Shown here one piece after another: positions 48,123-63,061 of a DNA stretch of 64,000 bases. Made by a program: the position numbers and the translations under genes. The notes below the pieces were generated by a model. The model did not search any database, was not told the origin of the DNA, and saw only the letters and a program-made list of their open reading frames with translations. The DNA is taken from positions 3,796 through 67,795 of the forward strand of contig MFQT01000016.1 of NCBI GenBank assembly GCA_001783145.1, written 5' to 3'. This DNA comes from Candidatus Magasanikbacteria bacterium RIFOXYB2_FULL_38_10 (GTDB lineage Bacteria; Patescibacteriota; Patescibacteriia; Magasanikbacterales; UBA10003). Each line of letters begins with the position of its first letter. Position 1 is the first letter of the stretch.

Positions 48123-49913
48123 TTACGGGCTCATTAATACTTCCACCTGAGAGCGGCCACTGACATCGGCCGTGGTGATTACGTTTTGATAACCAGGGAG
48201 AGTTACCGTTAAATTGTAAGTTCCCGAATCTAAACCGTAAAAAAAAGATTGGCCCGGGGGCGTGCAACCCGAGGTATAACTAATGGACACTTCTGATAAT
48301 TGCGGAGAAAAATTTTGATTAGCGGTTGATAAACTTATTTTATAACGCAAAAATCTGTCACCATTATGCACTGCGGAAATATTGCTATCACTGACAGTAT
48401 AATAAGTTTCTCCGGTTCCGTCCGGACCTAAAAAATTCCAAGAACTTGGCGCCGAGGAACTGGCCGTAGCAATTTGAAATTTAATAGAATCAACTCCGGT
48501 TTGAGCTGGCTGACTTAAGGGTTCCCAAATGATATTGGTAAAATTGCTGGCTGTTCCAAAGTCAATGGTGGAGGAGATTAATTCGCCGCTCCATTGATAT
48601 TTATTGCCGATTTTTTTTAAATACAAATCACCGGCGGGGCTATTTGTTTCCACTCCTCCATCTTGTAAAAAATAGCCTGTTTCGTCTATAAAGTTTTCTT
48701 GTCCCGAACCGCCCGACCAATCTGTTTGTCTTAAATAACCGCGTCCGGTAACCAAGGAATCGCTAAATGTCCCTTTATCAATAGAAACCGCGGCGTTAGT
48801 TAAAGGAAGTTTGGTGGCGCTATCTTTAATTGTTAAAAGCAAAGAGTTGGTTGTGTGTGAATGCAAGATTACAGATAAGTTTTGAGTAGCATCGGGAACT
48901 AAAAAAACCGGCAAGGTGGGAATGGTTCCGGCCACATCGTAACTTCCGTTAGACAAATTAAAACTATAAGTGTCCCATTCCAAATTATCTAAAACTTTTG
49001 TTCCCTCACTATTGGTGGAAACGGTTTGATCATAACGGTAAACATTAGGGTTTTCACCAATCACCTTGGAGCCACTGACGGAGAAAGAAATGTTGGAAAG
49101 GCCACTGCATTGCGGATTGATAGCAGAAAAATTGATGGTAGAAATTTTATCAATGGAAAAAGAAAGATTAGTGACGGTTTGTGAAGCCACGGTAGCCAAG
49201 GGTTTGACTGGATTAGGATTATTGACAGTTTCGGGAATAGTGTAATCGGTTGTGTAGCCATTTTTAGAAACAACAACAGAATACCCCTCGGTAGAAGTGG
49301 CTATGTCAATTATTTTTAATTCCCCATTAGTGTTAGTGGTATCGGTAAGATCAACATTGGGATTAACTAAAGTATTGGTAATATGAACTGTGGCCCCAGG
49401 CACCAGCAGGCCGGAAGCATCAAAAACTTTAATAAAAAGAGAACCGTTTTGGGAATCGGCTTCCGTATTTTTAGGAGAGATTCGAGCGGTTAAAATTGTA
49501 GGCCTTACCTGTCCGCCGGTGCAAGACGAACAAAAAACACGGACCTCGGCCAATTTAAAGTCGGCCGGAGAGGTATCATTGGGAGAACCTCCGGCCAAAC
49601 CGTCAAAAGGATCATCTATATTACGGATGGTTGTTTGTACTAAAAAAGACGCTCCATTACGCAAGGTGGTAGTGGTTTGCGGCCACACCCCATTAGGCAC
49701 CCCACCAATGGTTCCGGTACTTTCATAGGGCAAATTACGTAGAGTTTCTATAACTTCATTAGCTACTTGTGTTTCCAAAACTTGCACGCGAGAAATGTAG
49801 GTGACTTTAAAAACATAAATAATCACCGCATAAACTCCGGATAGAATAACGGCAAAAATGGCAATAGAAACTAAAATTTCAATTAAAGTAAATCCTTTTT
49901 TAATCCTGGTCAT
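48123..49913 (-). CDS. large type IV prepilin-like protein with carboxypeptidase-regulatory-like beta-sandwich domains
   Basis: N-terminal KKGFTLIEILVSIAIFAVIL prepilin motif. Internal GATVHITN...TNGELKIIDIATSTEGYSVVVSKNGY resembles a CarbopepD_reg fold. Rich in T/S/N. Confidence 0.65.
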   Translation of the reverse strand: MTRIKKGFTLIEILVSIAIFAVILSGVYAVIIYVFKVTYISRVQVLETQVANEVIETLRNLPYESTGTIGGVPNGVWPQTTTTLRNGASFLVQTTIRNIDDPFDGLAGGSPNDTSPADFKLAEVRVFCSSCTGGQVRPTILTARISPKNTEADSQNGSLFIKVFDASGLLVPGATVHITNTLVNPNVDLTDTTNTNGELKIIDIATSTEGYSVVVSKNGYTTDYTIPETVNNPNPVKPLATVASQTVTNLSFSIDKISTINFSAINPQCSGLSNISFSVSGSKVIGENPNVYRYDQTVSTNSEGTKVLDNLEWDTYSFNLSNGSYDVAGTIPTLPVFLVPDATQNLSVILHSHTTNSLLLTIKDSATKLPLTNAAVSIDKGTFSDSLVTGRGYLRQTDWSGGSGQENFIDETGYFLQDGGVETNSPAGDLYLKKIGNKYQWSGELISSTIDFGTASNFTNIIWEPLSQPAQTGVDSIKFQIATASSSAPSSWNFLGPDGTGETYYTVSDSNISAVHNGDRFLRYKISLSTANQNFSPQLSEVSISYTSGCTPPGQSFFYGLDSGTYNLTVTLPGYQNVITTADVSGRSQVEVLMSP

Positions 49914-50057: not shown

Positions 50058-52223
50058 TTATTCTTTCAGGCGACTTTCCGCCAGCACCATCAGCATCATA
50101 CTGAAAATCGGCGCTTCTTCGCGCAAACGATCAAAATCATCCTTAGCCAAAGAAAAAACTACCAGATCGGTTTTGGCCACCACATCAGCTATTCTTTTTT
50201 GGCCCTTAACCAGGGCGATTTCGCCAAACAGCTGATTAGTACCAAGAGTAGCCACATGCCGAATGTTGCCTCTTCCATCGTCATGCAGCACTTCAGCTTC
50301 TCCCTCAATAATGCCATACATATTATCCGCGTCTGTCCCTTGGGCAATAATCCTTGTTCCAACTGGAATAATTATCTTCTTAGCACGAACAAAAATCTTA
50401 TTCTGTGTACTAACCGAAAGTTCTCTAAACTGGTGGAACTGCATGAAGATGGGACGGAACTGGTGAATCTTCATCAGCATTTCCATAATCCTGGTATCCT
50501 TAATCAGCAGATTAAAGATTTCCTTGCCAATCTCCAACAACCGCACCGGCGTGTTAGTTCTGACAGAGGCGTTGCAAGGGACGCCAAACATAATAGACAT
50601 TTCACCAAAAAAGTCTCCGGTGGAAAGCTGGGCTATTACTTCATCTTTCTGCAAGACGGAAAGAGTCCCGGCTATAACGATGTAAAAATTCTTGCCTTCT
50701 TTGCCCAATTCCAACAAGTTGTGATTGATGGGATATTCCCTTACTCTTCCTTGATGCAAAATAACATTGAGCCACATGGGCGAAAGACCAGCCAAAATTG
50801 GAGCGTTCTGCACCTGCCTAAAGGCATTGACATCCCAGCTTTTGGCTTCTACAAAAGTCCAGCTCTGTCCCGGCGTTAAACTTTGGAACAGGTGCTGGAG
50901 ATTAGGGGGTACTTTGGAAAGGTGCGTGGGTACAATCACCCGACGCAGTTGCGGTGGCAGAGCGGCCAATTCTTCAATGTCAGGGTGAATGAGTCCGCCA
51001 CCGGCGTCAAAAAAAGTCAAATCCGATCCCATCTCCGGAATGTGCTGGATAAAATCGTGAAGTTCATGGGAAATAGCGCCCTTTTCCAAAAGCGCAGTCA
51101 GTTTTTTACCCCAAAGCGTATCACCACTATAAATGATGGAGCGGCCATTCAAGGTTACTCTGAACCCCAGCGTGGGCACAGTGTGCACCGCGCGCCAAAA
51201 TTCAAACCTGGCGCCGTACCAATCAAAGGGCTTTCCCAATTCAATTCGTACCTGCCTGATGTAATGTTTCACCTCTTCAACCGGCCGATCCAAAGTCAGA
51301 GCAATTTTAGTAACAATACACCAGTAACCAAGATCATCTGACATGGCATAGGAAACCTTGCCATTAACTACCAATCCAAAAATGTTGCAATGGTCCTCGT
51401 GAATATGGGTATCAATGAATACGAAGACTTCATGTGAGTTAATACCGAGGTGACGCAAGTGTTCTTTGGTCCAAGCCGAACTATCCACCAAAGCAAACAT
51501 ACCGTTGAGCGAGAGCAGCACGCCCGAGGTGTAGCCGGTAGGATCAAAACCAGTGGTGCATTTGCTCAAGGCAATCGCACCAAAAGTAGACCTATCAGCA
51601 AATAATTCCGGCATAACAATAGGCAAAGGAGGCCTCTGCGGTTCGTTGATGGTAATGTCTACTGTCCAAGTTTCTTCACCATTCGTGAACTCAAAAATAT
51701 TGGGCGCCAGAATTTTAACCTTCACGCCCTGGTATTCCAGTGTCCCGTCCGCAGCAAAACAAACAAATTCCACCAAGTCATCAATGCCCGCTACTTCGTC
51801 AGTACCCTTCTTGTGGATGGCCAAGGCATCAGACATTGTGCGGAATTCCACTTGCGTGGCTTTATCAATGCCCCACTTGTCCATATCCTCATACGAAGGG
51901 CCAAGCAAAGTCAAACGCAAAATTTTACGCAGGCGTTCAATCTGTTCGGCAGTGCCAAAAACAGTCGGGCGCTTACCCTGGAAATAATACTGCTTGAAAA
52001 ACAACATCTTAAAGATAGGGAATTCCAAGGCGGCTTGCACAATGCCGTATTGATACATTAGAGCCGGCAAAAAAATCTTGTCGGGCAACTGCAGGCCCTT
52101 AATTTCCAAAACCTTCACAATTTCCGAAGGACAACCAAGCAAGGCTTCAAAAGCCGAAGTGTGAGAAATTTTGCACCCGGGCATGACATCAGTGACCCTA
52201 ATCAAAGGCGTTTGACTGGACAT
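50058..52223 (-). CDS. multidomain protein: N-terminal unknown domain + MBL-fold hydrolase + two C-terminal cyclic-nucleotide-binding domains
   Basis: MBL HxHxDH (DTHIHEDH) plus downstream His/Asp ligands, then two CNB domains (GDFFGEMSIMFGVPCNASVRT and NQLFGEIALVKGQKRIADVVA). The start is set at MSSQTPL (52223), 7 nt after an AGGAGAAAAA RBS. The gene is clearly GC-richer than its neighbours. Confidence 0.6.
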   Translation of the reverse strand: MSSQTPLIRVTDVMPGCKISHTSAFEALLGCPSEIVKVLEIKGLQLPDKIFLPALMYQYGIVQAALEFPIFKMLFFKQYYFQGKRPTVFGTAEQIERLRKILRLTLLGPSYEDMDKWGIDKATQVEFRTMSDALAIHKKGTDEVAGIDDLVEFVCFAADGTLEYQGVKVKILAPNIFEFTNGEETWTVDITINEPQRPPLPIVMPELFADRSTFGAIALSKCTTGFDPTGYTSGVLLSLNGMFALVDSSAWTKEHLRHLGINSHEVFVFIDTHIHEDHCNIFGLVVNGKVSYAMSDDLGYWCIVTKIALTLDRPVEEVKHYIRQVRIELGKPFDWYGARFEFWRAVHTVPTLGFRVTLNGRSIIYSGDTLWGKKLTALLEKGAISHELHDFIQHIPEMGSDLTFFDAGGGLIHPDIEELAALPPQLRRVIVPTHLSKVPPNLQHLFQSLTPGQSWTFVEAKSWDVNAFRQVQNAPILAGLSPMWLNVILHQGRVREYPINHNLLELGKEGKNFYIVIAGTLSVLQKDEVIAQLSTGDFFGEMSIMFGVPCNASVRTNTPVRLLEIGKEIFNLLIKDTRIMEMLMKIHQFRPIFMQFHQFRELSVSTQNKIFVRAKKIIIPVGTRIIAQGTDADNMYGIIEGEAEVLHDDGRGNIRHVATLGTNQLFGEIALVKGQKRIADVVAKTDLVVFSLAKDDFDRLREEAPIFSMMLMVLAESRLKE

Positions 52224-52306
52224 TTTTTCTCCTGTTTTAGTTGTCAAAGTACCTTTTAAACTTAGCAAGTTTAAGGGTACATGTCAATCATTTTTAACTT
52301 AAACAA

Positions 52307-54420: not shown

Positions 54421-54906
54421 ATGAAAAAAAGCTCAACAATATTTCTTCAGGTCGTAATCATGCTTATCGGCATTGTGGCACTGGCCATTATGATCCGGTT
54501 TCCTTTGACCGAAGGAAGGGCCGCGAACTTAGACCTGTTTAGTATTTATGCTGACCCTTTCATAATCTATGGATATCTCGCGTCTATCGCGTTTTTCGTT
54601 GCGCTGTATCAGGCGTTTAAATTACTCGGATACATCAGACAAAATAAAGTATTCTCACTAGAATCCGTGAAGTCTTTAAGGAATATAAAATATTGCGCAA
54701 TCGTACTGAGTTGCTTTATTGTAATAGCGGCAATATACATAAGGGTATCTTTTAATGGCAACGCAGATGACGATCCGGCGGGTTTTATTGCCGTGTCTAT
54801 TGTGGCCATTTTTATTTCTATCGTTATCGCCACTGCCGCGGCCGTGTTTGAAAAAACTTTGCAAAGTGCCGTAGATATCAAGTCTGAGAACGACTTAACC
54901 ATTTAA
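54421..54906 (+). CDS. DUF2975-like four-TM membrane protein
   Basis: Four hydrophobic helices and a size typical of DUF2975, paired with the downstream small HTH regulator. A TTGACA-17-TAAATT promoter-like element lies at about 54366..54394. Confidence 0.5.
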   Translation: MKKSSTIFLQVVIMLIGIVALAIMIRFPLTEGRAANLDLFSIYADPFIIYGYLASIAFFVALYQAFKLLGYIRQNKVFSLESVKSLRNIKYCAIVLSCFIVIAAIYIRVSFNGNADDDPAGFIAVSIVAIFISIVIATAAAVFEKTLQSAVDIKSENDLTI

Positions 54907-54910
54907 CGCT

Positions 54911-55114
54911 ATGGCAATCATTATTAACATTGATATCATGTTGGCGAAGCGGAAGATGAGCGTCACCGAGCTCGCCGAGAAAGTTGGTATCACAATGGCT
55001 AACCTCTCTATATTGAAAAACGGAAAGGCAAAAGCAATTCGCCTTTCAACTTTGGAAGCTATTTGCAAAGCTTTAGATTGCCAGCCCGGGGACATTTTGG
55101 AATATAAGAAGTAA
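54911..55114 (+). CDS. XRE-family (Cro/C1-type) HTH transcriptional regulator, YozG-like
   Basis: MSVTELAEKVGITMANLSILKNGKAKAIRLSTLEAICKALDCQPGDIL is the canonical short HTH_XRE protein found with DUF2975. Confidence 0.75.
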   Translation: MAIIINIDIMLAKRKMSVTELAEKVGITMANLSILKNGKAKAIRLSTLEAICKALDCQPGDILEYKK

Positions 55115-55135: not shown

Positions 55136-55167
55136 AGAAAAAGAGCAGCACAAACCGCTCTTTTTTA
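55136..55167 (+). terminator. Rho-independent terminator after the XRE gene
   Basis: AAAAAGAGC / GCTCTTTTT stem followed by a T-run. Confidence 0.6.
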
Positions 55168-55390
55168 TTGATATTTTATAGACAAGCCAAATTTTTTCTA
55201 CGACAATCAAAAAACATTCACCTTTCCCAAAACTTGCTTAACATTTTGTTTATAACTATGAACTTTCTCTCGAGCGGCGAGGGATTTTTGCGGAGCGCGG
55301 ACACGAGGCGGCCGCTCGGAGCCGCCCTTTCAAATCGCGAAGTTTATATTAGCGGAGAGTCGTGGACGATGTCAGAACTGCCTTACTATT

Positions 55391-55705
55391 TTAGGATTCC
55401 ATTCGTTTAAGAGCTCTAAGAACAGTAGAAGCAACAAAATCTTTTCGCGCAGCGGCCAACACTGGCAACGTTGCGAGCACAGATGCATTTTTAGTAGGCA
55501 ACAATTCTACCTTTCCTCCGTTATAATCGGTAAGTTGCATTAAGAATTCATCGAGCCAAGATGGTGTTACTGTGAGTACTTGGTCAAAATCAATTTGGAC
55601 AGACACATCAGGATTAAGTTGTGGACGAATTGCATTAAAGGCCTCCAAACCTGCCGGGCGAGAAATAAGCACAGTGCCAAATTTTTTGAGTTGGATCATT
55701 TGCAT
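55391..55705 (-). CDS. STAS-like (DUF4325-type) small protein, putative partner of the upstream GHKL ATPase
   Basis: 104-aa protein with a STAS/anti-sigma-antagonist-like alpha/beta pattern. It lies immediately downstream of, and co-oriented with, the MerR-GHKL gene (12-nt gap). Confidence 0.45.
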   Translation of the reverse strand: MQMIQLKKFGTVLISRPAGLEAFNAIRPQLNPDVSVQIDFDQVLTVTPSWLDEFLMQLTDYNGGKVELLPTKNASVLATLPVLAAARKDFVASTVLRALKRMES

Positions 55706-55717
55706 ATTTATTATATT

Positions 55718-56446
55718 TTAAAATTGTATAACAGCATATGTTCCGCGGATATTTCCATCAGTCATCATAATTTGCATCAATCCTGGATGCAGAGGGATAT
55801 TAACTAGACCAATTCCCGAACGAAATAAAAGGCCGATTTCATTTGATTCTGCCACACTACGAACAACCTTGAGCCCGTTGCCGCGTTTCTCTGGATTTCT
55901 CCCCGAAACAATTTCTGTAAAAGCCACTTTAAGCGCTTCAATATCAGTTGCGAGATTTGGTCTGATTTGTTGAAGCGTTGTTTTGACACCGCGCCCTCGG
56001 TCCGCAAGAACTATAATACGCTTATCGATATTATACCCAAAAAATAAACCTGGAACATCAGGCCAGTTGCCAACATTATGTGCAAAAGAATTATCGCCGA
56101 TTTCTCCCGCAACAAGAGTGAGAAGCGAAGCCATATTTTCCGACACATTTCCGGCTTTTTGGAGCTCAGCACCCATCCTGGTCACTCGATTTGTGAAACG
56201 GTCTGCCCGTTCGCAATAATATTCACTTGGTAGTTCTGGTGGGATTGCGCTTGTGGCCCATGCTAGTCCTAATATTTTAAGATCAAGAGTAAAGTTGTTA
56301 AGATCTCGCAGCGCGTAAAAACGTTGTTTACCTTCACTTCGTCCAGCACGAAGTTTGCCGGATTTTTCCCAGTTGCGTAGAGTTTGCACCGAAACACCAA
56401 GTATTTTTGCCGCCTTTCCTATTCGTACGTTTTGCCCATTTATCAT
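55718..56446 (-). CDS. fusion protein: MerR-family HTH + GHKL (HATPase_c, RsbW/SpoIIAB-like) ATPase domain
   Basis: N-terminus MINGQNVRIGKAAKILGVSVQTLRNWEKSGKL is a MerR-type HTH. The C-terminal part has GHKL N-box (EIGDNSFAHN), G1 (DRGRGV) and G2 (GNGLKV)-like motifs. The start is set at the ATG at 56446, because the listed upstream GTG lies inside the promoter. Confidence 0.55.
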   Translation of the reverse strand: MINGQNVRIGKAAKILGVSVQTLRNWEKSGKLRAGRSEGKQRFYALRDLNNFTLDLKILGLAWATSAIPPELPSEYYCERADRFTNRVTRMGAELQKAGNVSENMASLLTLVAGEIGDNSFAHNVGNWPDVPGLFFGYNIDKRIIVLADRGRGVKTTLQQIRPNLATDIEALKVAFTEIVSGRNPEKRGNGLKVVRSVAESNEIGLLFRSGIGLVNIPLHPGLMQIMMTDGNIRGTYAVIQF

Positions 56447-56454
56447 ATAAAAAT

Positions 56455-56483
56455 ATAATACCACAAAAACCTATAAAAGTCAA
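56455..56483 (-). promoter_or_regulatory. sigma70-like promoter of the MerR-GHKL gene, with repeat/palindrome in and around the -35
   Basis: Minus strand TTGACT, 17-nt spacer, TATTAT, about 8 nt before the ATG. CTATAAAA / TTTTATAG inverted repeats flank the -35. Confidence 0.45.
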
Positions 56484-56560
56484 GGGAGTTTTTATAGATT
56501 ACAGCATAAAACCTATAAAATCTAGCATTTCTTTATATATTTACTAAGAAAACCTATAAA
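56466..56560. repeat. three phased direct repeats AAAACCTATAAA(A)
   Basis: Copies at 56466..56478, 56508..56520 and 56549..56560, spaced 42 and 41 nt. The first has an inverted partner TTTTATAG at 56492..56499. Confidence 0.8.
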
Positions 56561-56599: not shown

Positions 56600-56689
56600 T
56601 GGCGGTGGGGGTGAGATTCGAACTCACGATACTCTTGCGAGTATAGCGGTGTTCGAGACCGCCGCATTCGACCACTCTGCCACCCCACC
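56600..56689 (-). tRNA. tRNA-Ser (anticodon CGA), type II, encoded CCA
   Basis: Acceptor GGTGGGG/CCCCACC, anticodon stem GCGGT/ACCGC with loop CTCGAAC, long variable arm, T-arm GTGAG-TTCGAAT-CTCAC, discriminator G then CCA. Confidence 0.85.
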
Positions 56690-56860: not shown

Positions 56861-58150
56861 TTACAGATTAATCTTTTTACCTTCTAACTCTTCTATTTTC
56901 TTTTTCAATTCAATCATTTTTAACTCCCTACCTGATAAAATTTTATTAAGTCTTTCCACTTCCTCTAACTCTTGTTCCAAATTTTCCCTGGTTCTTTTCA
57001 AATCTTTTGTCCTATCTTCTACTTTTTGCTCCAAATTTTCATATGATTCTTTTAATTTAACTACCATCTCATTAAAAACTTTAATCAAAAAACCCATTTC
57101 ATCTTTTCTATTATAGCGGCTAGCAACAAAAATCACTTCATCAAAATCGCTCTGTGATAATTTTTGGGCTACGCGCGATAAATACAAAAGAGGATTGATC
57201 AACCAACGAGAAAATAACAAAGAAATTATTAAAACCGAAATTTCGGTAATAATAAAAATAATTAAAAAATAATTAAAAAGTTGCTTGAGCGGTTGATAAG
57301 CCTCATCTCTATTAATTTTTACCACCAAACCCCAATCTGCTCTAAGCGCATATCTGGTAGCCGCTATTACAGGAGTTCCTTTATAGTCAACAATATTATT
57401 TTCAACCAACAGAGTCTCGTGTCCGTTAGTTGCCGGTACGATGGGGACATTAATTTTATCTTTCGTGACAATACGAGTTAAAGAAGCATTAGGATCAAAA
57501 CGCGTAGGGGTAACAAAAAGCGCATCACCCTCTTTATTTTTTTGGGCTATCAGCATTTCGCCGGTTTCTCCTAAGCCAATAAAATCACTGGTGATTTTAA
57601 GCACTGGATCAAAAAAATTTATAACGGCAATAAAACCAATATTTTGATTATCTAAAATCAAAGGCGCAGTAAAAAGAAAACGAGGAATATTATCTACATC
57701 TTTAAAAATACCCTGGTATTTTTCTTTTTCTTGCGGACTTTGAAGCAGAGGCCACAGAGCCTTGTTCTTCTCTATCTCAGAATCGGTAGAGACAACTAAC
57801 CTATTTTCTTTGTCAAAGACAGAGATTGATTGAATTTCAGAAACGACCAAAGAAGCATCTCTAATAATTTCGTAAATTTTGTTCAAATTTTGCTGATCTT
57901 TATTTTTAGAATAATCTTGGAGATTAGTTTTTAAACTGGTGCGGGAACTGGTTAATTTTAAAATGTTAAAGTAAGAATTTAAAACCTCATTTATTTCTTG
58001 TTTTTTGGAATTGGCTAAAGAAATTAATTGTCCATTAACTTGATTGGAGATGGTGTCACGCATTTGCCAATAAAATAACGCGGTGATAACAATGAGAGGT
58101 ACGATGGTAATACCCACTAATAATAAAATAAGTTTGGTAAAAAATTTCAT
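56861..58150 (-). CDS. membrane sensor-domain protein (Cache-like periplasmic domain + HAMP + coiled coil) lacking a catalytic output domain
   Basis: TM1, then a periplasmic domain of about 250 aa, then TM2 (LIIFIITEISVLIISLLF) and a HAMP-like region, ending in a heptad coiled coil (LKESYENLEQKVEDRTKDLKRTRENLEQELEEVERL...). There is no HisKA/HATPase or MCP signalling domain. Confidence 0.5.
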   Translation of the reverse strand: MKFFTKLILLLVGITIVPLIVITALFYWQMRDTISNQVNGQLISLANSKKQEINEVLNSYFNILKLTSSRTSLKTNLQDYSKNKDQQNLNKIYEIIRDASLVVSEIQSISVFDKENRLVVSTDSEIEKNKALWPLLQSPQEKEKYQGIFKDVDNIPRFLFTAPLILDNQNIGFIAVINFFDPVLKITSDFIGLGETGEMLIAQKNKEGDALFVTPTRFDPNASLTRIVTKDKINVPIVPATNGHETLLVENNIVDYKGTPVIAATRYALRADWGLVVKINRDEAYQPLKQLFNYFLIIFIITEISVLIISLLFSRWLINPLLYLSRVAQKLSQSDFDEVIFVASRYNRKDEMGFLIKVFNEMVVKLKESYENLEQKVEDRTKDLKRTRENLEQELEEVERLNKILSGRELKMIELKKKIEELEGKKINL

Positions 58151-60004: not shown

Positions 60005-63000
60005 TTAAACTTTATCTCTTTTTTTCCAAAAAGCTATTTTACCAATAAAACCAAAAGCTATTGCCTTAGCTATGGCCCCGCGACCCTTGGCCAATAAAGC
60101 CAGCAACAAACTAGTCACTCCACCAGCCGTAGCGGTTAAATATTTTTCCGTCACATCAGCAGTAGTCCCATTGTCTATTGGCTTGCCTACATCTAAAATG
60201 TTGACATCTTCTGCTCCACGGGGCCAAAGAACCCAGGTATCTTTGCTTTTACCAATAATTCCTGTCACTTTTACTTTGTCCCCCACGCTAGCCACTTTGC
60301 CTTTTAGTCCGGTTCTACTTTTTAATTGCACTTGAATTTCCCCCATCTCATCGCCCAAATAAAAATAACCGCTACCCGTTTCTAAAACTTCACCTTCCAT
60401 TTGCACCAAAGAAAAAAATTTATCATCATCAATGTCTCCGGTGTTTACTGCCAATGGTTCTTTTAAATTATCAATAGATAAAATATCAATATCCTTTTTT
60501 TCTTTAATTTTTACGCGGACAGTGCCTAAATATGTTCCCAATTCACCAGTCACTTCTACCTCATCGCCAATTTTAATTGGGGGAAAATCTCTGCTGTTCA
60601 TATACACAGGTAAGCCCGCGCCGCTTAAAGGATCTACAATAAAAAACATTTGGGTACTAAAATTTCCCGGCGGAACCTTTACCACACCTTTGGTTTTTAC
60701 CATAGTTAAAGGTGCCAAGGCAGAAATTTTATCTAAAGAAGCAACAACTAAACTTTTTATTTTTTTAGCCGCGGAATTAACAGAATTTTTAGAAGAAACC
60801 ACGGCTATATTTTCTTCTTCATCGGTTTCCACATAAATTTTAAGCGCTTGTTTAACTTCGCCGCCTTGATTATCTTTAACCACTAAAGAAATCTTTTTAT
60901 TTCCTTTTGTTTGATAAATATGATTAACAATTTCTCCTTCCCCATTTGTCCCGTCGCCAAAATCCCAAAAAAAGCCAAGCGGATTATTATCCGGGTCAAA
61001 AGAATCCGAAGCGTCAAAAACAATTTCCTCGCCGGTTAAAACAACACTGGGTAAAGAAACCGCCACCAAAGGCAAAGAGTTGGGTGGAACCATTATGTTT
61101 TCTCGGCCCGGCGTCACGGCCACTGTCCAATCCCAAAGAGAACTTGTAGTCCCAGCTCTAGCCCAAGAAACACCATCCAAAGCGGTATCTTCAAATGTTG
61201 CCCTATCTAACAAACGATTGTCCGAATCGTAAAGTTCTAAATTTTCCGCATTATTTTTTAAAATTAAGTTGCTCTCTTTTCTTTTAACCACTAAAAATTC
61301 CCCTAGCCCAATAAAAGTGGAGGAAGCAAATTTGTATTTACGCCGGCTGGAATTGAGAAGATAAAAATTTTGCAGATTTATTTTCTCCGTGCCAATATTT
61401 TTTAATTCTATAAACTCCCCTTCTTGATCTGATCCTTTGGGATTGGGAAAAATTTCGTTGATGATGATACAGCTAGAAATGGGCGGGGTATTATTATTTA
61501 CGCTAGAATTATCAGCAGAATAATCTTCCGCTAAAAAAACATTGAAATTTCCCAATGTAGGAGTAGCGCAAACCGCCCAACTTTCTTTATTGACGCCAGA
61601 CTCAAAATTTTTTCTTCCCGCACTTTTGCTATCGTAAGGCGCCGAGGCATTGTCGGAGATGTTGCCGTCGTTCCAATTACCATAAGCAACTCTATCCACC
61701 AGGCGGCCAAAAGCATCATACAAAAAAATCACATCGCCGGAATTATTTAAATTTCCCTTGGGGCTATAAACCACGAAATAACCGTGTGGTTTAATTGTGC
61801 CTTGTAAAAAAGTTTGTTCCTCCGAACCCTCCTCCAGCCGCCAATTATTTAAATTGATCTCTTCGGCGGAATTGTTGTACAACTCCAGCCATTCTTTTTC
61901 GCCGCTATTGGGATCAGCAACAAATTCATTGATGAAAATTTTTCCGTAAGAAGCAGCAAGTAGATTGGCACTGCCACCGGAACTGGCCGCTGAGGACGAA
62001 TTTTCCATTTGTTCTGGAAGTAGAGTAATAACATTGGATTGGCTTTTAGTTGGCGTCAAAGTAAGAGCAAAATCTGATTTATCAAAATCAGTATCACTGC
62101 CATCACTTGAACGCGCCAAGGATTCACCGATCGATGGCGCAGGGGCATTGTCCATTAAATTATCATCATCAAAATTTCCATAAGATATTTGGTCAATAAT
62201 TTCTCCAACACTATTTTTTAAAATCACAATATCACCACTATTATTAAAACGACTAGAAAATTCTAAAACTAAAAATCCACCGGAAATAATTTCACCCCCC
62301 AAAGTAGTAGTAGAAGAATTATCTTGCAAAGTCCAACCAGCCAAATTGGCAGTAGAAGTAGCAGGGTTAAAAAACTCCACCCATTCTTTTTCCGCAGAAG
62401 TGGCGGTGACAGGATAAATCTCATTGATTTTAATGTGATAATTTGATCCGGTGGAAGTGGAAATACTTTCTAGCGGTGCTGGTGGCGTGATCAGGGCTTC
62501 ACTTTTTACTGCGCCAGGAGTACCACCCACCACATAACTTTCCTGCCAATTATCTGCTGTGCCAAAACCGGTTTCGTCTTTTTTCTCCAGAGTTTTGCTA
62601 TTTCCGGAAGCACCCCAACTGTTAGAATAATTCACCTCTGACCACAATGGCCCATCTGAACCAACTCTCAAGGCCACAGTGCCAGAGGCATTGCTTAAAC
62701 TAAAAGAAGATTTTAAAATTTTTCCCCAATAATTTGGATAATTAGAGGCAAAAGTGGCTTCATCTTGTACCACGGCACAATATTCTCCTGCTTCCAAAAT
62801 AGTGCTGGTGGAAAAAGTATGATTAGACCCGTCAAACAAACGCCAAGCGATGGCGCTTGAGCCGCCCACAATTTCTAAAGGTGAGGCGCCGGAATTTTTA
62901 ATTTCCACCCACTCATTTTTGGTATCCGAACCGCTGGGGTCACACATTATCTCTGTAATCTGCAAGTCGCTTTCGGCCGCCCAAATTCGTGAGGCAAAAA

Positions 63001-63061
63001 TAAAAAAACCACCGATTAAAAAAACGCTGGTTATTAAAAAACAAATTTTCCCCCTTGTCAT
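60005..63061 (-). CDS. large secreted, C-terminally anchored protein with three lamin-tail (LTD) domains and a PKD domain
   Basis: Signal peptide. Three LTD repeats (ITEIMCDP...EWVEIKNSG...; INEIYPV...EWVEFFNPA...GWTL; INEFVADP...EWLELYNNS...NWRL). A PKD-like block (GFFWDFGDGTNGEGEIVNHIYQTKGNKKISLVVKDNQGG). A C-terminal hydrophobic anchor plus KKRDKV. Confidence 0.65.
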   Translation of the reverse strand: MTRGKICFLITSVFLIGGFFIFASRIWAAESDLQITEIMCDPSGSDTKNEWVEIKNSGASPLEIVGGSSAIAWRLFDGSNHTFSTSTILEAGEYCAVVQDEATFASNYPNYWGKILKSSFSLSNASGTVALRVGSDGPLWSEVNYSNSWGASGNSKTLEKKDETGFGTADNWQESYVVGGTPGAVKSEALITPPAPLESISTSTGSNYHIKINEIYPVTATSAEKEWVEFFNPATSTANLAGWTLQDNSSTTTLGGEIISGGFLVLEFSSRFNNSGDIVILKNSVGEIIDQISYGNFDDDNLMDNAPAPSIGESLARSSDGSDTDFDKSDFALTLTPTKSQSNVITLLPEQMENSSSAASSGGSANLLAASYGKIFINEFVADPNSGEKEWLELYNNSAEEINLNNWRLEEGSEEQTFLQGTIKPHGYFVVYSPKGNLNNSGDVIFLYDAFGRLVDRVAYGNWNDGNISDNASAPYDSKSAGRKNFESGVNKESWAVCATPTLGNFNVFLAEDYSADNSSVNNNTPPISSCIIINEIFPNPKGSDQEGEFIELKNIGTEKINLQNFYLLNSSRRKYKFASSTFIGLGEFLVVKRKESNLILKNNAENLELYDSDNRLLDRATFEDTALDGVSWARAGTTSSLWDWTVAVTPGRENIMVPPNSLPLVAVSLPSVVLTGEEIVFDASDSFDPDNNPLGFFWDFGDGTNGEGEIVNHIYQTKGNKKISLVVKDNQGGEVKQALKIYVETDEEENIAVVSSKNSVNSAAKKIKSLVVASLDKISALAPLTMVKTKGVVKVPPGNFSTQMFFIVDPLSGAGLPVYMNSRDFPPIKIGDEVEVTGELGTYLGTVRVKIKEKKDIDILSIDNLKEPLAVNTGDIDDDKFFSLVQMEGEVLETGSGYFYLGDEMGEIQVQLKSRTGLKGKVASVGDKVKVTGIIGKSKDTWVLWPRGAEDVNILDVGKPIDNGTTADVTEKYLTATAGGVTSLLLALLAKGRGAIAKAIAFGFIGKIAFWKKRDKV

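Follow-up and report, generated by a model that had tools for sequence, protein, structure and literature searches.

Can a two-gene locus of a reduced bacterial genome connect a kinase-like protein directly to DNA binding, in the place that a sigma factor holds in the known partner switches? The question is raised by two adjacent genes, here termed A and B, of Candidatus Magasanikbacteria bacterium RIFOXYB2_FULL_38_10, a member of the Candidate Phyla Radiation (CPR, or Patescibacteria). They lie in a stretch of 64,000 nucleotides (contig MFQT01000016.1, positions 3,796 to 67,795 of the forward strand), which is termed the window and to which all coordinates refer. Protein A joins a MerR-type winged helix-turn-helix (wHTH) to a divergent GHKL domain, and protein B is a divergent DUF4325 protein. 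A first reading of the letters alone (the original prediction) saw in them a self-contained partner-switching pair, possibly belonging to a mobile or defence-associated module. The evidence collected here favours, with a probability of about 0.6, an autoregulated two-gene module of CPR/Patescibacteria that resembles a partner switch and in which an HTH-fused, kinase-like protein replaces the sigma-factor output. In the literature searched, DUF4325 came up in three papers, none of which describes a GHKL–DUF4325 pair, and combinations of CPR, MerR, STAS, GHKL and partner switching returned no relevant paper.

Proteins encoded by the pair

The N-terminal part of A is a MerR-type DNA-binding domain, as had been proposed. 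PF00376 matches residues 8–44 with an E value of 1.8e-12 (47.3 bits, cut-off 28.2), PF13411 also scores above its cut-off (37.6 against 21.6 bits), and in a Foldseek search with the structural model the HTH matches RacA and NmlR. The domain displays the TLRxWE signature of the N-terminal wHTHs of the MerR family, which includes as minimal forms HspR, BldC, RacA, NmlR and the excisionase-like HTH_17 proteins. The MerR_1 profile covers only positions 2–47 of 69 in A, however, and the coiled-coil dimerization helix and effector-binding region of MerR proteins are absent; the model consists of the HTH, short helices and the GHKL domain, which replaces helix and effector pocket. An HspR-like heat-shock repressor was considered and rejected, as the match is confined to the HTH and lies far below cut-off, the operator differs and there are no chaperone neighbours.

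Because its 49 aligned homologues start where A has the ATG of position 56446, A is assigned 242 amino acids (aa); the ATG is, by this comparison, the true start. The list of open reading frames (ORFs) gives instead a GTG at 56464 (248 aa), which falls between the -35 and -10 hexamers of the promoter described below.

In the Pfam scan, the ~180 residues after the HTH of the window protein have no match, to HATPase_c* families included. The GHKL assignment comes from motifs and fold. In the 49-homologue alignment the N-box of A reads E115-I-G-D-N119-S-F-A-H123, the G1 box D149-R-G-R-G153, and the lid with the G2 box S181-G-R-x-P-E-K-R-G-N-G-L-K193, where G2 is G189-N-G-L192. Residues E115, N119, D149, G151, G153, N190, G191 and L192 are invariant in the 49 homologues and G189 is kept in at least 90% of them; window residues 115, 119, 149, 151, 153, 189, 191 and 192 are also invariant in 35 stand-alone relatives that have no HTH. 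HATPase_c is matched by 13 of these 35 and HATPase_c_2 by 12, all weakly (best E ~5e-4) and below cut-off. The AlphaFold2 model of A has a predicted local distance difference test score (pLDDT) of 85.3 and a predicted template modelling score of 0.78, with low confidence only at lid residues 184–187. Its Foldseek matches are the ATPase domains of Hsp90/TRAP1, GyrB and African swine fever virus topoisomerase II (E 5e-4 to 4e-3, probability 0.97–1.0). Motifs and model show the C-terminal part of A to be a true, though divergent, GHKL domain, predicted to bind ATP.

The original prediction had been more specific, likening this domain to RsbW and SpoIIAB. An hhalign comparison of the A profile with Bacillus subtilis SpoIIAB (its sequence confirmed against PDB entries 1TIL and 1L0O) runs in register from the N-box, with E, N and H paired, to the G1 box, and is not significant (P 0.015, probability 3%). 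SpoIIAB is not among the top 50 Foldseek matches of the A model, and the GHKL profile finds no relative among the sequences of solved structures. Thus the GHKL part of the claim stands, with the ATP-lid and G-box residues in place; in size and in the style of its N-box the domain is like SpoIIAB, but membership in the SpoIIAB family is not supported by significant sequence similarity.

Protein B of the window scores below the gathering cut-off of DUF4325 (PF14213; E 0.0048, 17 bits against 23). DUF4325 is matched by 35 of 38 close B homologues (best E 9.8e-6), and precomputed PF14213 matches are present in the partners of the stand-alone GHKL genes. The B model (pLDDT 92) has the element order beta-beta-alpha-beta-alpha-beta-alpha-alpha, which fits the STAS order. 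Against the PDB the model has no significant match, the STAS domains of prestin and SPDT being weak hits (template modelling score, TM, 0.42–0.54; E 2–3), and the B profile finds nothing among PDB sequences. In BFVD, DUF4325 proteins stand at ranks 1, 2 and 4; ranks 1 and 4 have TM 0.53 and 0.62 with probability 0.97, rank 2 has TM 0.45 with probability 0.57, and the E values are only ~0.1–0.2. B is a divergent, STAS-like member of DUF4325, as proposed; the element order would suit a STAS fold, the PDB matches to STAS domains are weak, and no similarity to SpoIIAA is detected (see below).

The segment P48-S49-W50-x-D52-E53 of B is invariant, distant partners of the stand-alone forms included. 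In the model, S49 (codon 55559–55561, minus strand) is at the N-terminus (N-cap) of helix 2, the position of Ser58, the residue phosphorylated in SpoIIAA. Ser49 may be a phospho-acceptor. B shares with the DUF4325 proteins of other bacteria and of phages, a family of the STAS clan, sequence similarity and its best structural matches, but differs from them in the divergence of its subfamily and in having a GHKL protein as partner in CPR chromosomes. Published contexts of DUF4325 are a coupling to PIN/VapC (PMC5499597) and prophage accessory genes (PMC7924643).

Promoter and putative operators

The promoter of the original prediction, TTGACT-17-TATTAT at 56483..56455 with an almost leaderless ATG, is found as described. 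Since just 8 nt separate the -10 hexamer from the ATG, the A mRNA would be leaderless or nearly so, and by the same promoter geometry this would apply to an A–B transcript. The proposed phased repeats are likewise present. There are three exact AAAACCTATAAA copies, which start at 56466, 56508 and 56549 (spacings of 42 and 41 nt), together with an inverted copy at 56490–56500; exact copies occur nowhere else in the window. Of the three TTTATAGGTTT copies, two have an inverted arm. The repeats can be described as three putative operators, O1 to O3 (Table 1). TTGACT is directly 5′ of the O1 half-site TTTATAGGTTT; the right arm of O1 is degenerate in the window, with the -10 hexamer in its place. 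O3 is restricted to the closer relatives of the window.

The repeats are conserved beyond the window. Upstream of A there are 19.4 half-sites per kb, as compared with 1.27 per kb in the rest of the loci. In clade 1 (A proteins at least 56% identical to that of the window) half-sites are at about -112(+), -95(-), -71(+), -54(-) and -30(+) relative to the ATG, and in many loci also at -12(-). With L and R for left and right arm, 54 clade 1 promoters have O1L in 51 cases, O2L in 43, O2R in 44, O1R in 15, O3L in 11 and O3R in 12, and TTGAC is found immediately 5′ of O1L. In lineages that keep O1R, this arm doubles as the -10 hexamer (TAAACT), followed 7 nt later by the ATG. Clade 2 proteins, ~48% identical to A of the window, have a different arrangement, with three direct TTGCATAG(T/A)TT repeats spaced by 20–21 bp, the last of which supplies the -35 hexamer. 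The clade 2 HTH is altered at the recognition helix and wing, from QTLRNWE to DTLRRWD and from Q to H. Two specificity variants thus occur in nature, one that pairs TTTATAGGTTT with QTLRNWE and one that pairs TTGCATAGTTT with DTLRRWD.

The repeats are assigned to A mainly because the operator co-varies with the HTH, and also because the dyad, with 67 occurrences in ~820 kb, is found at A promoters in every case. This co-variation suggests that A binds its own promoter. The search covered ~64 kb of the window genome and at most 12 kb of each other genome. As in the MerR family, an operator half-site lies within the -35/-10 spacer; unlike in that family, the spacer is 17 bp rather than 19–20 bp, so that activation by DNA distortion is not expected, and the operators are multiple dyads at 41 bp or direct repeats at 20–21 bp. 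The placing of several phased palindromic operators over both the -35 and the -10 hexamer also recalls hipBA, in which multiple operators cover the operon's promoter in this manner. The kinase fold of hipBA is unrelated, however, and A–B shows no sign of toxin behaviour or mobility.

A position weight matrix scan of the window returned the three promoter sites and, besides them, only single sites inside coding regions. A metagenome-wide scan for perfect dyads yielded 46 stretches. Thirteen are A promoters, and the others are mostly longer unrelated hairpins on contigs of 0.23–0.64 G+C content, beside unrelated genes. Perfect TTATAGGTTT-N7-AAACCTATAA dyads without an adjacent A gene are present in L088 and L120/L125 (Hainich groundwater) and in L090 (a further metagenome contig), and some of them are close to additional half-site-like sequences. 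These dyads may be other targets of the regulator, or palindromes that arose by chance. Further regulon members of A probably exist.

Distribution, selection and genomic setting

A pattern-seeded scan with one genome per species showed that 312 genomes encode a relative, and 80 loci were kept. CPR/Patescibacteria lineages are named for 67 of these, among them Uhr-, Magasanik-, Adler-, Kaiser-, Nomura-, Komeili-, Kerfeld-, Doudna- and Berkelbacteria. Nine of the 80 (L023, L037, L046, L051, L052, L055, L060, L068 and L077) carry non-CPR labels, namely Gammaproteobacteria, Ignavibacteriae, Omnitrophica, Bdellovibrionales and Roseivirgaceae, one being on a 127-kb contig; these labels likely reflect mis-binning or mislabelling. 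The family is essentially confined to CPR/Patescibacteria. B is directly downstream of A, on the same strand and at a distance of 6–143 nt, in 78 loci, and the other two are cut by contig ends. The pairing is therefore kept in 78 of 78 scorable loci, which bears out the proposed self-contained character of the pair. Apart from A and B, any one gene cluster is found in at most 9 of the 81 neighbourhoods, and no sigma-factor gene is found in the neighbourhoods of the pair.

When the GHKL domain alone served as query, an exhaustive search returned only 284 clusters at 50% identity. These comprise a form of ~242 aa with the MerR HTH, a stand-alone form of ~191 aa and two fusions seen in single cases: P0317, where the partner domain is a MarR-type wHTH, and P0283, where it is cytidylyltransferase-like. 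A profile search returned 4967 proteins, of which the named ones are again from CPR. The P0283 fusion mirrors the gene order at L082 (3541–4582), where CTP_transf_like precedes GHKL, and a functional link of the GHKL module to a nucleotidyltransferase is possible. In all three stand-alone cases inspected a DUF4325 gene, whose product is 37–40% identical to B, is directly downstream, and the pairs sit among housekeeping genes such as those for SerRS, Ddl, GAPDH and MiaA. As the DUF4325 gene also accompanies GHKL genes that have no HTH, GHKL plus DUF4325 forms the conserved core unit, to which one subfamily has added the MerR HTH. On a Berkelbacteria contig (L084, 7046–8567) a diversity-generating retroelement, with bAvd and reverse transcriptase, is located 2.5 kb from a stand-alone pair.

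A and B are under strong long-term purifying selection. Nonsynonymous divergence (dN) is 0.08–0.2, synonymous divergence (dS) exceeds 1 or is saturated in every comparison except that with the nearest relative, and omega (dN/dS) of the pair is ~0.05–0.1. Within genome pairs A and B are 60–87% identical, against 41–47% for MetK, 39–57% for the PilB-type (type IV pilus) ATPase, 46–53% for an NTP-transferase and 45% for a solute-binding protein. Recent horizontal transfer as a cause of the high identity across CPR classes was rejected, since synonymous sites are saturated.

The original prediction had pointed to tRNA-flanked DNA of elevated G+C content as a sign of mobility or defence. With 0.433, the G+C content of A is not unusual in the window (ORF mean 0.387, standard deviation 0.040), and 7 of 54 ORFs are higher. 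The tRNA-Ser gene adjoins the pair only in L004, L011, L012 and L035, and in L037 with opposite orientation; its synteny with the pair is limited to these few close relatives and is not general. The window has no integrase, transposase or other mobile gene near the pair, and no direct or inverted repeat of the tRNA-Ser 3′ end that would resemble an att site. A mobile island at tRNA-Ser was rejected on these grounds. So was a phage origin, as 2.9 million viral contigs contain no relative, and so was a defence system, as PADLOC matched the HTH alone, through its mad1 and MTase_II models. The pair is probably chromosomal and vertically maintained, and a mobile or defence-associated nature is unsupported.

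A and B are arranged head-to-tail on the minus strand, with a gap of 12 nt. The features of the locus are collected in Table 1.

Table 1. Features of the A–B locus and its flanks, in coordinates of the window
Feature	Position	Strand	Remarks
Gene A	55718..56446	(-)	242 aa, stop codon included; MerR-type wHTH plus divergent GHKL (Bergerat-fold) ATPase or kinase domain
MerR-type wHTH	56288..56425	(-)	Residues 8–53 of A; recognition helix QTLRNWEKSGKL
GHKL domain	55721..56149	(-)	Residues ~100–242 of A; invariant motif columns and fold matches
N-box E115..N119..H123	56075–56104	(-)	In gene A
G1 box DRGRG	55988–56002	(-)	In gene A
ATP lid and G2 box (SGRNPEKRGNGLK)	55868–55906	(-)	In gene A
Gene B	55391..55705	(-)	104 aa; divergent DUF4325 (STAS-like) protein
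Sigma-70-type promoter TTGACT-17-(TGn)TATTAT	56455..56483	(-)	Best promoter-like site; geometry kept in homologous loci
Putative operator O1, left half-site TTTATAGGTTT	56466..56478	(-)	Abuts -35 and fills -35/-10 spacer
Putative operator O2, dyad TTTATAGGTTT-N7-TAATCTATAAA	56491..56519	(-)	41 bp upstream of O1
Putative operator O3, dyad TTTATAGGTTT-N7-AAATATATAAA	56532..56560	(-)	82 bp upstream of O1
tRNA-Ser(cga)	56600..56689	(-)	Same strand, upstream of A; not part of module
Intrinsic-terminator-like hairpin, then T-run	55138..55165	(-)	Shared with convergent DUF2975/HTH_26 genes

The hairpin at 55138–55165 is the likely end of the A–B transcript. The 225 nt that separate the B stop codon from this terminator include a GC-rich, hairpin-prone stretch (55266–55330), which has no Rfam match and a fold z-score of -0.1, no better than shuffled sequence; an RNA element at this place was rejected for both reasons. 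Convergent with the operon (54421–55114, plus strand) are genes for a DUF2975 membrane protein (E 1.2e-32) and a 67-aa HTH_26 Cro/C1-type regulator (E 2.8e-26), the latter 280 bp beyond B. In L015, L026 and L032 this cassette also lies no more than a few kb from the pair, with varying distance and orientation, and L044 has an HTH_26 protein near the pair without DUF2975. The HTH_26 protein is 80–92% identical across these genomes, a conservation that exceeds that of A.

Just past the tRNA-Ser gene is a 429-aa protein (56861–58150, minus strand) with a dCache_1 domain (below cut-off), a HAMP domain and a coiled-coil tail, and with no recognizable output domain. A 736-aa protein (50058–52268, minus strand) has two C-terminal cyclic-nucleotide-binding domains and, by eye, a mid-protein HxHxDH motif like that of metallo-beta-lactamases. 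A large surface protein with four lamin-tail domains and one PKD domain (60005–63061, minus strand) and a pilin-like protein that has a methylation motif at its N-terminus (48123–49913, minus strand) are typical CPR cell-surface genes and not genes of mobile elements.

Possible mechanism and competing explanations

Among known systems, the partner-switching pairs SpoIIAB–SpoIIAA and RsbW–RsbV come close to A–B. In these as in A–B a small single-domain GHKL protein is encoded beside a ~100-aa beta-alpha protein of STAS type, the N-box ExxxNxxxH and G1 box DxGxG of A are in register with those of SpoIIAB, the partner has an invariant Ser at the N-terminus of helix 2, and the operon is autoregulated, for A–B by inference. 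The differences are also clear. A and B have no significant sequence similarity to these proteins, neither sigma-factor nor PP2C genes are nearby, and A carries its own HTH, so that its output would be direct DNA binding. In spoIIAA-spoIIAB and rsbV-rsbW the antagonist gene precedes the kinase gene; the A–B order is the reverse.

It is proposed that A oligomerizes through its GHKL domain, binds the operators and represses its own leaderless promoter. Repression would be by occlusion of RNA polymerase, rather than by the DNA distortion with which MerR proteins activate, because the 17-bp spacer is already optimal. B would bind the GHKL domain of A in a nucleotide-dependent way, perhaps become phosphorylated at the invariant Ser49, much as SpoIIAB phosphorylates SpoIIAA, and change the oligomeric state or DNA affinity of A, thereby closing a feedback loop. 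The operon might thus serve homeostasis, as a switch that responds to ATP/ADP or to a signal from an upstream phosphatase or kinase. By analogy, partner switching as originally proposed is plausible and partly supported, though unproven.

Several observations weigh against this explanation. DNA binding, contact between A and B, ATP binding and phosphorylation are all inferred, and B might either relieve or reinforce repression. The similarity of A to SpoIIAB is below significance, and its best structural matches are Hsp90, GyrB and topoisomerase II, not SpoIIAB; between the B profile and SpoIIAA hhalign detects no similarity (probability 0.1%). Neither a PP2C phosphatase nor any other conserved third gene is found near the pair in the 81 neighbourhoods. 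No dyad is present outside A's own promoter in the 64 kb of the window and ~760 kb of loci, and the metagenome-wide scan gave no coherent second target. The stand-alone pairs have no HTH, and therefore DNA binding is not the universal output of the module.

Some of these points suit an ATP-driven clamp without kinase activity, in the manner of GyrB, MutL, Hsp90 and MORC. ATP would dimerize A, the HTHs would meet on the dyads and promoter occupancy would report ATP, with B as an unphosphorylated, co-chaperone-like co-regulator of the ATPase cycle. The structural matches of A are of this type, its relatives match the general HATPase_c as often as HATPase_c_2, B does not resemble SpoIIAA, and dimerization must come from elsewhere than the missing MerR coiled-coil. 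The clamp is nevertheless unlikely, as A has neither the transducer domain nor the N-terminal strap of clamp-type GHKL ATPases, its domain is SpoIIAB-sized with the N-box of that family, and the invariant Ser of B is where SpoIIAA is phosphorylated. A different idea, that A binds other targets and the repeats belong to another protein, for example the HTH_26 regulator close by or some factor general to the CPR, draws on the position of the HTH_26 gene and on the binding of A being a prediction. It is very improbable: the repeats accompany A in loci that have no HTH_26 cassette, their sequence changes along with the recognition helix of A, and the motif is found nowhere else in the ~820 kb.

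Could the pair be a toxin–antitoxin or defence module, with A as a HipA-style kinase toxin that has its own HTH, B as antitoxin or pseudosubstrate, and the multi-operator promoter as autoregulation of the hipBA type? The compact operon with several operators over its promoter is of this kind, the variable neighbours sometimes include type I restriction–modification, Fic or serine-recombinase genes, and DUF4325 genes elsewhere have the PIN/VapC and prophage associations cited above. Against this are the low omega with saturated dS, the greater conservation of the pair than of MetK, the HTH-only PADLOC match, the lack of viral relatives and of any paralogue in the window or loci, and the stand-alone pairs amid housekeeping genes, all of which make such a module quite improbable. 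Returning to the autoregulated module, a bolder form of it can be held only tentatively. The GHKL–DUF4325 pair would be a CPR-specific, sigma-independent partner switch, and in the MerR-fused subfamily the kinase-like A would itself be a repressor that reads energy or phosphorylation state and acts as master regulator of an unseen regulon, for example one that switches between free and host-attached life. A master regulator would explain why conservation of the pair exceeds that of core enzymes.

Gene regulation in CPR/Patescibacteria is almost unknown, as these organisms have very few transcription factors and are hard to grow. The locus provides a regulator, a predicted operator, a partner protein and two natural specificity variants, all defined from sequence. 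If the GHKL–DUF4325 pair is a partner switch with a fused-HTH output, partner switching would extend beyond the control of sigma factors, and the DUF4325 family would also be given a function. The unusually strong conservation of A and B suggests an important role in the reduced genomes of the CPR.

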